This document shows, piece by piece, positions 15,032 through 36,038 of a DNA stretch of 64,000 nt; the stretch's first letter is position 1; each line of letters begins with the position of its first letter. This stretch comes from Escherichia coli (GTDB lineage Bacteria > Pseudomonadota > Gammaproteobacteria > Enterobacterales > Enterobacteriaceae): NCBI RefSeq assembly GCF_050920415.1, contig NZ_CP169309.1, one strand, 5' to 3'. A program made the translations under genes and the position numbers. The notes beneath the pieces are model-generated. The model searched no databases. It was given only the letters and a program-made list of their open reading frames with translations, and had not been told where the DNA came from.

Positions 15032-16615
<1,584 letters not shown>

Positions 16616-16621
16616 CAGAAA

Positions 16622-16696
16622 AGAAAAAGGCCACTCGTGAGTGGCCAAAATTTCATCTCTGAATTCAGGGATGATGATAACAAATGCGCGTCTTTC
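16622..16696 (-). ncRNA. micA: sRNA MicA (SraD), sigmaE-dependent regulator of ompA
   Basis: Reverse complement reads gaaagacgcgcatttgttatcatcatccctgaattcagagatgaaattttggccactcacgagtggcctttttc, with terminal hairpin and U-run. Confidence 0.9.
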
Positions 16697-16702
16697 ATAT
16701 AC

Positions 16703-16730
16703 TCAGACTCGCCAGGGAAGAAAGAGTTCA
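16703..16730 (-). promoter_or_regulatory. sigmaE-type promoter of micA (-35 gaactc, -10 tctga)
   Basis: Elements upstream of MicA 5' end on minus strand. Confidence 0.5.
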
Positions 16731-16764
16731 GAAAATTTTTAAAAAAATTACCGGAGGTGGCTAA

Positions 16765-17280
16765 ATGCCGTTGTTAGATAGCTTCACAGTCGATCATACC
16801 CGGATGGAAGCGCCTGCAGTTCGGGTGGCGAAAACAATGAACACCCCGCATGGCGACGCAATCACCGTGTTCGATCTGCGCTTCTGCGTGCCGAACAAAG
16901 AAGTGATGCCAGAAAGAGGGATCCATACCCTGGAGCACCTGTTTGCTGGTTTTATGCGTAACCATCTGAACGGTAATGGCGTTGAGATTATCGATATCTC
17001 GCCAATGGGCTGCCGCACCGGTTTTTATATGAGTCTGATTGGTACGCCAGATGAGCAGCGTGTTGCTGATGCCTGGAAAGCGGCAATGGAAGACGTGCTG
17101 AAAGTGCAGGATCAGAATCAGATCCCGGAACTGAACGTCTACCAGTGTGGTACTTATCAGATGCATTCGTTGCAGGAAGCGCAGGATATTGCGCGTAATA
17201 TCCTGGAACGTGACGTACGCATCAACAGCAACGAAGAGTTGGCGCTGCCGAAAGAAAAGTTGCAGGAATTGCACATCTAG
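16765..17280 (+). CDS. luxS: S-ribosylhomocysteine lyase (AI-2 synthase)
   Basis: 171 aa; HTLEH metal-binding motif. Confidence 0.97.
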
Positions 17281-30067: not shown

Positions 30068-32212
30068 TTAAAGCGCGCAGGAGACGCAGCCTTCAATTTC
30101 AGTACCTTCCAGCGCCATCTGACGCAGGCGGATGTAGTAGAGCGTTTTGATACCTTTGCGCCAGGCGTAAATCTGCGCTTTGTTGATATCGCGAGTGGTG
30201 GCGGTATCGGGGAAAAACAGTGTCAGCGACAGTCCTTGATCGACATGGCGAGTCGCTTCGGCGTAGGTGTCGATGATCTTTTCTGCGCCGATTTCGTAAG
30301 CGTCCTGATACAGCGCCAGATTCTCGTTAGTCATAAACGGGGCAGGGTAGTAAACGCGTCCTGTTTTGCCTTCTTTGCGTATCTCTACTTTCGCCACAAT
30401 CGGATGAATACTCGACGTGGCATGGTTGATATAAGAGATGGAACCGGTTGGCGGCACCGCCTGGAGATTTTGGTTGTATATGCCATAGCGCATCACGTCG
30501 TCGCGCAGTTGCGCCCACATTTCGCGGGTAGGTAACGTGATGCTGCTACGAGCAAACAACTCGCCAACTTTCGCCGTTTTCGGTTGCCAGTTACCTTGCA
30601 GATATTGGCTAAAATATTCACCGCTGGCATAGCGTGACTGTTTGAACCCGGCGAAGGTTTCACCGCGTTCGCGCGCCAGCAACATTGAGGTACGCAGCGC
30701 GTGCCAGGTGATGGTGTAGAAATAGAGATTGGTGAAATCCAGTGCTTCCGGCGAACCATAGGCGATGCCTTCTCGCGCCAGATAACCGTGTAAATTCATC
30801 TGCCCCAGACCGATAGCGTGTGAGGCGGCATTTCCGGCTTCGATGGACGGCACGCTGCGAATATGACTCATATCTGACACCGCAGTTAAACCGCGCACGG
30901 CAGTCTCTACCGTGCGGGCAAAGTCGGGGGAATCCATGGTGTGGGCAATATTCAACGAACCTAAATTGCAGGAAATATCATGGCCTGTGCGGGCATAGTC
31001 GAGATTCTCGTCATACTCTGAGGCGCTGTTAATCTGTAAAATTTCTGAGCAGAGATTGCTCATATTTATACGCCCGGCAATAGGGTTAGCACGGTTAACC
31101 GTGTCTTCATACATGATGTAGGGATAGCCGGATTCAAACTGGATCTCCGCCAGCCGCTGGAAGAAATCACGGGCGTTGATGTATTTTTTACGGATGCGTT
31201 CATCGGCTACCAGTTCGGCATAGTGTTCGCTGATGGCGATATCGGCAAACGGCTTGCCATAAACTCGCTCAACGTCATAGGGCGAAAACAGCGCCATCTG
31301 CGCATTCTCTTTTGCCAGATGGAAGGTGATATCCGGGATAACCACGCCCAGCGACAGTGTTTTAATGCGGATTTTCTCGTCGGCATTTTCCCGTTTCGTA
31401 TCGAGAAAACGCAGAATATCGGGATGATGGGCATGTAAATAGACTGCGCCAGCACCCTGACGCGCGCCGAGCTGGTTGGCATAAGAAAATGCGTCCTCCA
31501 GCATTTTCATCACCGGAATCACGCCAGAGGATTGATTTTCAATACGTTTAATTGGTGCGCCCGCTTCCCTCAGATTCGACAGCAAAAATGCCACGCCGCC
31601 GCCGCGTTTCGACAGTTGTAGTGCGGAATTTACTGCCCGGCCAATCGACTCCATATTGTCTTCAATACGCAGCAAAAAACAGGAAACCAGTTCGCCGCGC
31701 TGCCGCTTACCGCAGTTGAGGAATGTCGGTGTTGCAGGCTGAAAGCGTCCTGACAGCATCTCATCGGTCAGTTGCGTAGCCAGTGTTTTATCGCCTTGTG
31801 CCAGCGTCAGCGCCACCATCGTGACTCGATCGGCAAAATCTTCCAGATAACGCTTACCGTCGAATGTCTTCAACGTATAGCTGGTGTAAAACTTCCATGC
31901 TCCGAGGAATGTCTGAAAACGAAAACCGCTGGCGTGTGCGTGGGCAAACAGTGTAATGACAAAATCGCGAGAGTAGCGATTAAGGACGCTTTCATCATAG
32001 TAACCTTCGTTGACCAGCCAGTTCAGGCGCTGCTGCTGGCTACTGAAGGTCACACTGTTCGGACGCACATGTGTCGCCATAAAGGCGTCAACGGCCTGGC
32101 GATCTTTATCGAACTGAATGCGACCCGCGTTATCGTAAATATTAAGCATCGCATTCAGAGCGTGGTAATCCGTCGTTTCCTGCGTCAGGCGTTCTGCGGT
32201 TGTCGTTGCCAA
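30068..32212 (-). CDS. nrdE: class Ib ribonucleotide reductase alpha subunit
   Basis: 714 aa; synteny. Confidence 0.95.
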
Positions 32213-32595
32213 AATTCGGTTACTCCTTTACGAACGTTTTCGATATCGCTTTGCGTACCCATGAGTTCAAAGCGGTACAGCCACGGCACGCCGCATTTCC
32301 GGGCAATCACATCTCCGGCGCGGCCATACGCCTCACCAAAGTTGCGATTACCCGAAGCAATAACGCCGCGAAGCAACGCCCGGTTGTGCGCGTCGTTTAA
32401 AAAGCGAATTACCTGTCGTGGCACCGCGCCAGCTGTACCGCCGCCGCCGTAAGAGGGCACGATCAGGATGTAAGGCTCGTCTACCTGAATCCGTTCCCGC
32501 TCATTGAGCGGGATGCGCACCGCGGGCAGTCCTAAACGTTCGATAAAACGCTGCGTATTTTCGGAGCTGCTGGAAAAGTAGACGAGTTGGCTCAT
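32185..32595 (-). CDS. nrdI: flavodoxin-like NrdI
   Basis: 136 aa; 28-bp overlap with nrdE start. Confidence 0.9.
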
Positions 32596-32837
32596 GCACT
32601 GGCCGCGTGTGGCGCTGGATGCAGACGATTGATCATGTCCGGGCGGAAACCAGACCAGCTAAGATCGCCTGCAATCACTACCGGCAACTGACGAAAGCCC
32701 TGAGCACGTAACGCTTCCGCCGCTTCAGGAACGCGATCGACATTAATCATTTCAAAATCAAAGCCCCGGTTTTCCATCGCCCGTTTGGTGGCGTGGCACT
32801 GAACGCAATCGTTACGAGTGTAAATAGTAATGCGCAT
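32592..32837 (-). CDS. nrdH: glutaredoxin-like NrdH (CVQC redox motif)
   Basis: 81 aa; CVQC. Confidence 0.93.
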
Positions 32838-33020
32838 GATTCGTATTTCCGTTTAAAATGAAGATACGGCGCGATGATACGCGTCGGGTTGTCTCTCTGT
32901 TGATACAGAGATACTAGATGTAGTTGAAAAAAGATTCAACCACACAATATATAGCAAATGGTGGTCGAAATTACCCTGGGTATGAGCGTGACGGGGTAGG
33001 GGGATTTTTGTGATTCACCA

Positions 33021-33054
33021 GGCAAAAAGAAACCCCGAAGCCAGGCTTCGGGGT
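33021..33054 (-). terminator. rho-independent terminator after ygaM
   Basis: accccgaagcc / ggcttcggggt hairpin followed by U-run on minus strand. Confidence 0.7.
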
Positions 33055-33414: not shown

Positions 33415-33565
33415 ATGATCCCCCATTAGAATTCGATGTAATTTTCAGTGTAGACCATAATTTTCTTAACTGAGGTTCATCGCGGCTTTATGGACTTTTC
33501 TGAAAGCGTTGTGAATGCGCAATCAGGTAAGGTAGGCCCGCGGTTGATAATAACGAGGATCAAAT

Positions 33566-33910
33566 ATGTATTTACGACCAGACGAGGTGGCGCGCGTACT
33601 TGAAAAAGTCGGTTTTACTGTCGATGTGGTAACTCAGAAAGCGTATGGTTACCGCCGTGGGGAAAATTATGTCTATGTTAATCGCGAAGCACGCATGGGA
33701 CGTACCGCTCTGGTAATTCATCCAACATTAAAAGAACGCAGTTCAACACTGGCTGAACCCGCTTCCGATATTAAAACGTGCGATCATTACCAGCAATTTC
33801 CGCTCTATTTAGCGGGTGAATGTCATGAGCATTACGGTATCCCGCATGGCTTTAGTTCGCGTGTTGCGCTTGAACGTTATTTGAATGGTTTATTTGGCGA
33901 AGCCAGTTAA
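33566..33910 (+). CDS. ygaC: conserved protein YgaC
   Basis: 114 aa; synteny. Confidence 0.8.
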
Positions 33911-33913
33911 AGA

Positions 33914-33940
33914 CGCGACTGGCGATGCCAGTCGCGAAAA
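33914..33940. terminator. bidirectional hairpin between convergent ygaC and alaE
   Basis: cgcgactggc gat gccagtcgcg, perfect 10-bp stem. Confidence 0.55.
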
Positions 33941-33946
33941 GAAGGG

Positions 33947-34396
33947 TCAGGCTTTTACCTGCTGGTAACGGCTGACTTTAAACAGTCGGCGGCAATAATC
34001 GAGGAAGTAGCCATAAACCGCCCCCATCAACATCGAAACAACGATGTTTGAACTGACCGCCGCCATAATCTGATGCCAGTCTGCGCCCACCACTAACAAG
34101 ATCGCCACATACACCGGTGACTGGAACGTCACATACGCCAGGATATCCGCCAGATTTTTTACCCAGCCCGACGGACTAACTTTGCGTGCCGCACGCATAA
34201 ACAGATCGCGGTACATACCGTATGGCCATGCAATTAAGATGTTCACCGGAATCGCTACCAATCTGGAATAAAGAGACTGTTCGAAGCTCATTCCGGAGAG
34301 GAAAACTTCAATACACATGTTCACGACAGAACAGTAAACAACCATCGCGAACGTATCTGCAACTGCATGACGCAAGCGTGACTGCGGTGAGAACAT
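33947..34396 (-). CDS. alaE: L-alanine exporter
   Basis: 149 aa membrane ORF; synteny. Confidence 0.85.
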
Positions 34397-35062
34397 GCTA
34401 ATGCTCCTTAATAAAAGCGTAATGGGACGTTAATAGAGATGAAAGCAGTGGATCTCATTGCCATCTGCATTTTCGCATAGCGTATATCGCTGGCTATGAC
34501 TAATCAATTAGTGAAAAATTTTTATTTAATCTGTTTTTGTAGATAAAATATTCCGTAGCGGCGCGTTTTTTGTACATTGTGGATTTTTACATGCTGATAT
34601 GATTTATTTTTAATTAAATCAATTAGATATGCACGTATCTTTATTTTCACTAATGAAAGTTTGGGGGTGAGGTAACGCTATAAGCGTAGAGAGTTCGGTG
34701 TATGCAGTGACTGGGTCATTTTCAGCATTTTTTATGCCAGACAATGTACATTAACAGCAGAAAGCACCAGTGAGTGATGTTTATTTTTATTCGTATATAT
34801 TGCATTTTTATTCGATTTGGTTTTATCAGGCTTGCGGAATTAGCGAGCAGAGAGCGCCGCTCTGTTCACCAATAACCGAAATTACTCATCAAATTGGCTA
34901 ATATATAATCTTGAAATTATTCTGAGAGTTTCAGAAAATAACAGCTGAAATAATCTCGTGCAGGACTGTAAATAGATTAAATTTTGTGGAAATATAATAA
35001 GTGATCGCTTACACTACGCGACGAAATACTTTTTGTTTTGGCGTTAAAAGGTTTCCTTTATT

Positions 35063-35467
35063 ATGTCCGTAATGTTACAAAGTCTAAATAACATTCGCAC
35101 TCTCCGTGCGATGGCTCGCGAATTCTCCATTGACGTTCTTGAAGAAATGCTCGAAAAATTCAGGGTTGTCACTAAAGAAAGACGTGAAGAAGAAGAACAG
35201 CAGCAGCGTGAACTGGCAGAGCGCCAGGAAAAAATTAGTACCTGGCTGGAGCTGATGAAAGCTGACGGAATTAACCCGGAAGAGTTATTGGGTAATAGCT
35301 CTGCTGCTGCACCACGCGCTGGTAAAAAACGCCAGCCGCGTCCGGCAAAATATAAATTCACCGATGTTAACGGTGAAACTAAAACCTGGACCGGTCAGGG
35401 CCGTACACCGAAGCCAATCGCTCAGGCGCTGGCAGAAGGTAAATCTCTCGACGATTTCCTGATCTAA
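35063..35467 (+). CDS. stpA: H-NS paralog StpA
   Basis: 134 aa [33 protein letters not shown]... Confidence 0.95.
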
Positions 35468-35513
35468 TTACTGAGGCCGGATGTCGCTGCTATGGCGCGT
35501 CCGGCGTCGCTTC

Positions 35514-36038
35514 TCAAGCTTGTTGGTTCCACGGCATCTTATCTAACAACCTTGCCATCCCACAAAAACCGCTAATTCCTGCAAACAGTAACCCGGCACC
35601 AACAAAGCCACTTAATAAGAAGAAACCACTATTTACGGTATAACCCAGTACAACGCCGATTAATATTAAACCACCCGCGGCGATCTGCACCTGGCGCATT
35701 AACGGCAAGGGTTGAGACTTATTTACCGCAACTGGCAATCCTGCTTTTTTCCAGCCATCAATCCCATCTTCGAGTAAAAAGATTTCTGCGGGTGCGGCAA
35801 TCGCTGCTAATTTATCGGCGTTATTACTGGTGCGTTTACCTGCCTGGCAGTGGAAGATAATTTGCTCACGACGTAATTTAGCCGGAAGACCTGACTGTTC
35901 GAGCACAGATAATGGAGCCAAATCTGCTTCAGGAATATGTTCACGAAGATATTCATCAGCATCACGAATATCGATTAACTTTGCGCCGCGTGCGATTAAT
36001 TCTTGTGCATCATGCGGCGAAATGGTTGTCAAAGCCAT
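35514..36038 (-). CDS. ygaP: rhodanese-domain inner membrane protein
   Basis: 174 aa; CQAGKR rhodanese active-site loop. Confidence 0.85.

Follow-up and report, generated by a model that had tools for sequence, protein, structure and literature searches.

The 666-bp gap between the divergently transcribed genes alaE and stpA is, in all likelihood, a shared transcriptional control region for both genes, without a gene of its own. At either end lies a conserved regulatory module, and the spacer that separates the two drifts freely. The gap in the window (the whole stretch of E. coli DNA analyzed here, 64 kb in length) is the orthologue of an already described regulatory region of K-12, and it presents nothing new in kind. 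Lrp control at this K-12 stpA-alaE (ygaW) region was studied by Ziegler/Freddolino in 2023 (PMC10127797) and reportedly also by Kroner in 2019 and Ihara in 2017, and the regulation of stpA in K-12 is said to have been treated by Free and Dorman in 1997 and by Sonden and Uhlin in 1996.

The list of open reading frames places the gap at 34397-35062, exactly as in the original prediction, with alaE on its left and stpA on its right (Table 1). The StpA protein encoded in the window is 100% identical to K-12 StpA. The G+C content of the gap is 34.2% (66% A+T) versus 49.4% for the window, and falls within the lowest 4.3% of all 666-bp segments of the 64-kb stretch. Runs of at least four A or T number 20 in the gap, compared with 10.6 +/- 3.0 in composition-matched shuffles, none of which reached 20 in 1000 trials, and with a window-wide mean of 7.6 per 666 bp. 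The strong AT-richness with A/T tracts described in the original prediction is confirmed. By the annotation of a strain that is identical over the gap and the compared genes, the alaE-stpA gap is the longest among the gaps between core genes in the surrounding 40 kb.

Of 5426 complete E. coli genomes, 5419 have the gap once, in each case on the chromosome, and none of the genomes listed carries an annotated feature under the match. The gene order ygaM-ygaC-alaE / stpA-ygaP-ygaV is the same in strain 2020CK-00188, which is identical to the window over the gap and the compared genes. The orthologous stpA-alaE gap of K-12 MG1655 has the same flanking genes in the same orientation and measures 668 bp as against 666 bp; RefSeq shows no feature inside it. 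The two gaps are collinear throughout with a single 2-nt indel and 90-99% identity per 100 bp. Their promoter-proximal parts are 97-99% identical, whereas the central 270 bp are only 91% identical. A search with AlaE in one genome per species returned 80 loci, and stpA lies divergently upstream of alaE in 58 of them (58 species of Enterobacteriaceae), with a gap of 475-789 bp and 31-43% G+C. Because the divergent arrangement recurs in 58 species, the long AT-rich gap is an ancient feature that the alaE/stpA pair has conserved.

Table 1. Features of the alaE-stpA gap and its flanking genes, in window coordinates.
Feature	Position	Strand	Remarks
alaE CDS (L-alanine exporter), left flank	33947-34396	-	149 aa; ORF list and RefSeq name in the gap-identical strain and K-12
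alaE side of gap	34397-34630		many columns at least 90% conserved across genera, no indels; pi 0.030; ~96-97% identity to window, ~5400 genomes
Predicted alaE 5' leader	34397-34472	-	start near 34472 predicted from the putative -10
Predicted alaE core promoter	34479-34507	-	-35 TTGATT 34507-34502; 17-nt spacer; -10 TACGCT 34484-34479
Conserved Lrp-consensus-like sites (three)	34478-34492; 34509/34512-34526; 34541-34555	.	~31 bp apart
Upstream part of alaE control module	34556-34630	.	includes second conserved TTGAT at 34622-34618
Centre, fast-evolving, indel-rich, AT-rich	34631-34900	.	~270 bp; 0.12-0.43 identity to window base per 20-bp block, 14-64% gaps; pi 0.081; ~90-93% identity, ~5400 genomes; rare allele in window
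stpA side of gap	34901-35062		moderate cross-genus conservation from 34977 on; pi 0.0064; ~98% identity, ~5400 genomes
stpA upstream region	34901-34986	.	strong E. coli constraint; phased A/T tracts; Lrp-like site; promoter-like site
Lrp-like site	34910-34924	.	3 mismatches to consensus
Promoter-like site	34911-34939	.	TTGAAA/17/GAAAAT; promoter scan
Candidate stpA core promoter	34987-35015	+	-35 TGGAAA 34987-34992; 17-nt spacer; -10 TACACT 35010-35015
stpA 5' UTR, proximal part	35016-35062	+	includes conserved GCGTTAAAAG at 35041-35050
stpA CDS (H-NS paralogue), right flank	35063-35467	+	134 aa; ORF list and RefSeq

Three zones emerged from an alignment of 59 gap sequences, which gave the cross-genus conservation, and from the within-species diversity (pi) of eight E. 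coli, for which the four-fold degenerate sites of ygaC, alaE, stpA and ygaP served as the neutral reference. The pi at these four-fold sites is 0.056. The centre reaches 0.081, and the 95% confidence interval of the difference, centre minus four-fold, is -0.001 to 0.053; the centre therefore drifts at an approximately neutral rate. By the same reference, the pi of 0.0064 on the stpA side means that the stpA-proximal 162 bp are about nine-fold more constrained than neutral sites. The constraint on the alaE-proximal part within E. coli is intermediate between the two. The coding sequences of alaE and stpA are ~98-99% identical over the E. coli population. This anatomy defines mutagenesis targets at a model locus for Lrp bridging, namely the alaE module, the neutral centre and the constrained stpA module.

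The alaE module is a block of ~230 bp that is conserved in the 59 species with stpA at this place and in 19 species that have alaE but lack an adjacent stpA. Since it is kept in the latter 19 species as well, the module belongs to alaE and not to stpA. The 19 loci (L042, L045-L048, L051, L053, L056-L058, L060-L063, L065, L066, L070, L077 and L082) include Kosakonia, Silvania and Superficieibacter, and most of them keep a long non-coding stretch upstream of alaE.

The predicted core promoter of alaE, a weak one of the sigma-70 type, lies within this module. The TTG of its -35 and the TA...CT of its -10 fall in columns that are at least 90% conserved across genera, and their spacing is fixed. 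The hexamers match the consensus at 7 of 12 positions, which is under the threshold of the promoter scan, and for this reason the scan did not list the promoter. Promoter prediction had been proposed originally as a check on the gap; it listed three promoter-like sites over 34200-35300 versus 3.4 expected from shuffles, with only one of the three in the gap. Hexamers as weak as these would fit an activator-dependent promoter. Beyond the -35, the conserved columns in the alaE direction continue through an invariant AAATAAAAAT block, then a CAGAGTATTTTATC-type block, and further blocks up to the second TTGAT. On the leader side, the Shine-Dalgarno sequence AAGGAG at 34404-34409 is kept in almost every one of the 59 aligned sequences, and a G-rich variant of it occurs in most of the 19 species without stpA. 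Citrobacter amalonaticus (locus L011) carries a GC-rich insertion of ~125 bp in the alaE leader, before the Shine-Dalgarno sequence, that is absent from all other aligned species. This insertion may be a small repeat or a MITE-like element.

Every alignment column of the 59 sequences was scored against the Lrp consensus YAGHAWATTWTDCTR. Three sites in the alaE module showed mean mismatches of 3.2, 4.2-4.6 and 3.6, respectively, against a background of 8.4 +/- 1.1. Their starts, at 34478, 34509/34512 and 34541, are spaced by about three helical turns, and the first site overlaps the predicted alaE -10. The window sequence by itself is not enriched in such sites, with two matches to YAGHAWATTWTDCTR at three or fewer mismatches versus 3.75 +/- 2.2 in shuffles, and at the three sites it has 3-4 mismatches, no better than chance for AT-rich DNA. 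Because the matches in the window alone are at chance level, the assignment of the three sites to Lrp rests on their conservation, their spacing and the published Lrp ChIP and regulation data. We infer from this pattern that the conserved blocks contacted by Lrp may be these three candidate sites.

The published data come from K-12. ChIP-seq in minimal medium showed a double Lrp peak, one in the stpA-alaE promoter region and the other more than 1 kb away in the ygaP ORF (PMC10127797), which in the window occupies 35514-36038. When leucine, isoleucine and valine are supplied only one Lrp peak persists, and alaE is then strongly activated (PMC10127797). Removal of the ygaP peak lowered the Lrp-dependent activation of stpA more than 5-fold (PMC10127797). 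Since this ygaP-internal peak is needed for full stpA activation, the control region functionally extends past the gap. Atomic force microscopy (AFM) showed that Lrp bridges the DNA of the stpA-alaE region and that leucine abolishes the bridging (PMC10127797). The induction of alaE by L-alanine and L-leucine goes through Lrp, according to the passage of PMC6801825 that cites Ihara 2017.

The stpA module has a different conservation profile. Over 34901-35062 the sampled E. coli genomes show 97.6-98.2% identity, and none of the 5418 falls below 95%, yet 34901-34975 is poorly conserved between genera. It is conceivable, though rather unlikely, that the E. coli-specific constrained stretch 34901-34980 holds a lineage-specific distal stpA promoter or regulator site, as yet undescribed. 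In addition to the promoter-like site and the Lrp-like site of this stretch (Table 1), a perfect TATAAT is present at 34904-34909.

The hexamers of the candidate stpA core promoter match 8 of 12 consensus positions, and cross-genus conservation in the TGGA.AT and TA...T columns is 75-90% or higher. The spacer of this promoter contains a perfect TATAAT (34993-34998), which is an alternative -10. In a Salmonella reporter built from mapped start sites the stpA 5' UTR was taken to start at -83 (PMC5137417). This start maps to ~34982 in the window, upstream of both candidate -10 hexamers and of the favoured hexamer pair. The stpA promoter hexamers and the start site are thus candidates only. Further downstream, the small RNA SdsR pairs with and protects positions -22 to -13 of the Salmonella stpA mRNA (PMC5137417). 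These positions correspond to GCGTTAAAAG at 35041-35050, which is conserved in Escherichia, Salmonella and Citrobacter.

Some details of the window sequence differ from other E. coli in this module. Only 5 of 5418 genomes are at least 99% identical to the window over 34901-35062. The stpA 5' UTR of the window has a run of five T at 35030-35034 and a C at 35056; in a comparison set of seven further E. coli strains, the run is six or seven T long and position 35056 is a T. Both differences are located just upstream of the stpA start codon.

The A/T tracts over 34880-35062 (183 bp) are phased at ~11 bp, with a resultant of 0.77 and P ~0.002 when the number of tracts is fixed. In the centre the phasing is marginal (P 0.046), and neither the alaE side (P 0.42) nor the full 666 bp (P 0.54) reaches significance. 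The signal for the whole gap, borderline against sequence shuffles, was discarded, as it was not significant under the null that fixes tract number. The phased tracts predict curved DNA at the stpA end only, not over the whole gap. A scan of the gap for the high-affinity H-NS motif (TCGATAAATT-like) gave one match at two or fewer mismatches versus 1.7 expected, and none at a stricter setting. Activity of the stpA promoter changes with osmotic shock and temperature, requires Lrp in minimal medium and is subject to silencing by H-NS (PMC4668568). According to PMC2814080, H-NS silences stpA, and each of H-NS and StpA represses both its own gene and that of the other.

The gap might then be seen chiefly as a nucleation platform for H-NS and StpA, that is, curved AT-rich DNA for the silencing and autoregulation of stpA with Lrp in a secondary role. 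The A+T content of 66% over 666 bp, the A/T runs at twice the expected number, the phasing of the tracts beside stpA and the published silencing, auto- and cross-regulation (PMC4668568, PMC2814080) are all consistent with this reading. However, the strongest conservation in the gap falls on a segment that belongs to alaE and is retained in species missing stpA, the phasing is not significant for the alaE side or for the gap as a unit, the H-NS motif is at chance level, and the direct occupancy and bridging data retrieved are for Lrp. As an account of the whole gap it is somewhat unlikely. It is compatible with a shared control region for alaE and stpA, of which it would then be only a part. 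The original prediction, which had called the gap typical of H-NS/StpA-bound curved DNA, was half right and is partly supported. Its AT-rich regulatory DNA is real, and H-NS is plausible at the stpA end; extension of the curvature to the rest of the gap was not supported, and Lrp was missed. Lrp is the best-documented binder of the region, through its ChIP-seq peaks, the bridging seen by AFM and its control of alaE as well as stpA.

A working scheme for the shared control region can be proposed. In the alaE module, Lrp would assemble on the phased sites and switch alaE on in the presence of alanine or leucine. The oligomeric state of Lrp, controlled by amino acids, would lead to either mild repression or strong activation of alaE, and the site that overlaps the alaE promoter could explain the mild repression in minimal medium. 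The centre would be at most an AT-rich spacer or scaffold, its exact sequence unconstrained. The stpA end would provide the curved AT-rich DNA on which H-NS and StpA silence stpA. Lrp, aided by the bridge of more than 1 kb from the gap to ygaP, would counter this silencing, and leucine would dissolve the bridge. SdsR at the stpA 5' UTR would add a post-transcriptional layer of control. Lrp occupancy, bridging, Lrp-dependent regulation and H-NS repression are documented in the literature for the K-12 orthologue. We infer which of the conserved blocks may carry each of these K-12 activities.

The gap can be compared with other regulatory systems. The ilvIH, pap and dadAX regions are multi-site, helically phased Lrp control regions. 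The gap resembles them in having degenerate Lrp-like sites at intervals of ~30 bp that lie upstream of a weak promoter and overlap it, and in an outcome that is modulated by amino acids. For dadAX, control by Lrp is described in the same study that reported the bridging (PMC10127797). The gap is unlike these systems in that its sites are predicted and are weak matches to a 15-bp consensus (3-4 mismatches), and in that the stpA-alaE locus has a secondary Lrp peak in the downstream ORF ygaP, outside the gap. The proU and hns regulatory regions are H-NS-silenced, curved, AT-rich promoter regions. They share with the gap the AT-rich A-tracts phased at ~11 bp upstream of a promoter reported to be H-NS-repressed. 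In contrast to them, the gap has no high-affinity H-NS motif by the scan used, its phasing is confined to the stpA-proximal 183 bp, and half of it serves another gene, alaE, through another regulator.

The centre of the gap evolves quickly. It is only ~52% identical to other Escherichia species, versus 91-93% for the flanking genes, and within E. coli it falls into at least three deep haplotype groups. The allele in the window is rare and ~9% divergent from most E. coli. Among 5418 complete E. coli genomes, just 6 are at least 99% identical to it and 5382 are at 90-95%. This rare allele is the one modest, population-genetic oddity of an otherwise ordinary, known locus. Introgression was considered as its source and rejected, as the allele is no closer to the sampled Escherichia species than is that of K-12 (0.858 for both to Escherichia sp. 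MOD1-EC7003). The centre has two islands of higher G+C, at ~34655-34715 and ~34826-34875. Short direct and inverted repeats in the gap were also dismissed as real structure, since they occur at about the chance level for 666 bp of AT-rich DNA (the best ones have 0.15-0.55 expected, by our own estimate).

One could suppose that the centre is a decayed mobile element or pseudogene remnant, outside any regulatory design. Its neutral or faster rate, its many indels and the two islands of higher G+C would all agree with such decay. But it is single-copy in every E. coli genome, its repeats do not go beyond short chance-level matches, it has no intact or conserved reading frame, and a gap of at least 475 bp has been kept in 58 of 58 species. 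A remnant of this kind is very improbable. Alternatively, the centre may be selected for length and A+T content rather than for sequence, and form a scaffold that lets the Lrp and H-NS/StpA complexes at the two promoters communicate or stay insulated. This proposal is speculative and rather unlikely to be correct. If the centre is such a scaffold, its deeply divergent E. coli alleles, including the rare one, would tune the expression of stpA and alaE differently. The rare allele, at ~9% divergence, is a natural variant for asking whether the sequence of the spacer matters.

The original prediction had also pointed out that the gap is large enough to hide a small RNA or a small ORF, though it saw no convincing terminator or ORF. 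The latter observation stood. No terminator-like site turned up in a consensus scan of the gap. Stops, frameshifts or a missing start codon in relatives disrupt all nine gap ORFs of 20-43 aa, and for most of these the break is seen inside the genus Escherichia. The 43-aa ORF at 34770-34901 has in-frame stops in E. albertii and two further Escherichia representatives, and the 20-aa ORF at 34408-34470, in the alaE leader, is broken in other Escherichia species. A 25-aa frame at 34500-34577 was evaluated as a leader peptide and rejected. It lacks a start codon in Salmonella, Citrobacter and Enterobacter and has an in-frame stop in S. arizonae, and its invariant stretches of 10 or more bases are the pattern of a DNA site, not of codons. 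The rows listed in the small-ORF ribosome-profiling tables of Stringer 2021 contain no entry for the gap.

RNA was searched for in several ways. A permissive Rfam scan of 33500-36000 (E <= 10) found nothing in the gap; its sole match lies outside the gap at a chance-level E of 7.2. Consensus folding in sliding windows of 120 nt, on both strands and with 8-14 genera, returned values of 0 for both the consensus energy and the structure conservation index in every window. The window sequence itself folds no better than shuffles (z -1.2 to +0.6). The tables of a Term-seq study of K-12, covering LB at two densities and minimal glucose, list no 3' end or Rho-termination region at K-12 2,798,400-2,799,299, the span of the whole gap, in these three conditions (PMC7815308). 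The 3' ends near stpA in the same tables are a terminator at K-12 2798048 and an ORF-internal end at K-12 2798243 (PMC7815308), which correspond to window ~35510 and, inside the stpA ORF, ~35315, respectively. The end inside the ORF could derive from a stpA fragment that was processed or terminated early.

An unannotated gene for a small RNA or small protein, perhaps Escherichia-specific, would have to lie in the centre or at 34901-34980. The length of the gap, the presence of ORFs of 20-43 aa, the promoter-like site at 34911-34939 with the perfect TATAAT beside it, and the conservation of 34901-35062, far above neutral within E. coli yet poor between genera over 34901-34975, give some room for it. 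Against it, no ORF is free of interruptions or frameshifts in close relatives, the scans described found no conserved fold, no Rfam match at E <= 10 and no terminator-like site, the K-12 gap is empty in RefSeq and lacks a Term-seq 3' end in three conditions, and the centre evolves neutrally. A hidden gene is extremely unlikely, and this part of the original prediction was not supported. The practical outcome of the shared-control-region reading is that there is no gene to add at the alaE-stpA gap.

Other parts of the window showed features of their own. Between luxS and emrB, at 15456-17272, the annotation of the gap-identical strain has genes for an 'ATP-binding protein' and an 'RNA ligase family protein'. 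K-12 presumably has no genes between luxS and emrB, and the pair may be an accessory or defence-like insertion. Genes of the carboxymuconolactone decarboxylase family and the PLP-dependent aminotransferase family are located at 31176-33029, between nrdH and ygaM, and K-12 is without both there. Further stretches of low G+C, where 666-bp segments have 38% G+C or less, are found at 44561-50400 and 56931-59050, with a minimum of 28.7% near 46921. The first of these, at 44561-50400, looks like an island beside a tRNA gene; within it are a gene of the alpha-amylase family, tRNA-Ile, a DUF5507 gene and, just before the ypjA AIDA-repeat gene, a recombinase fragment.
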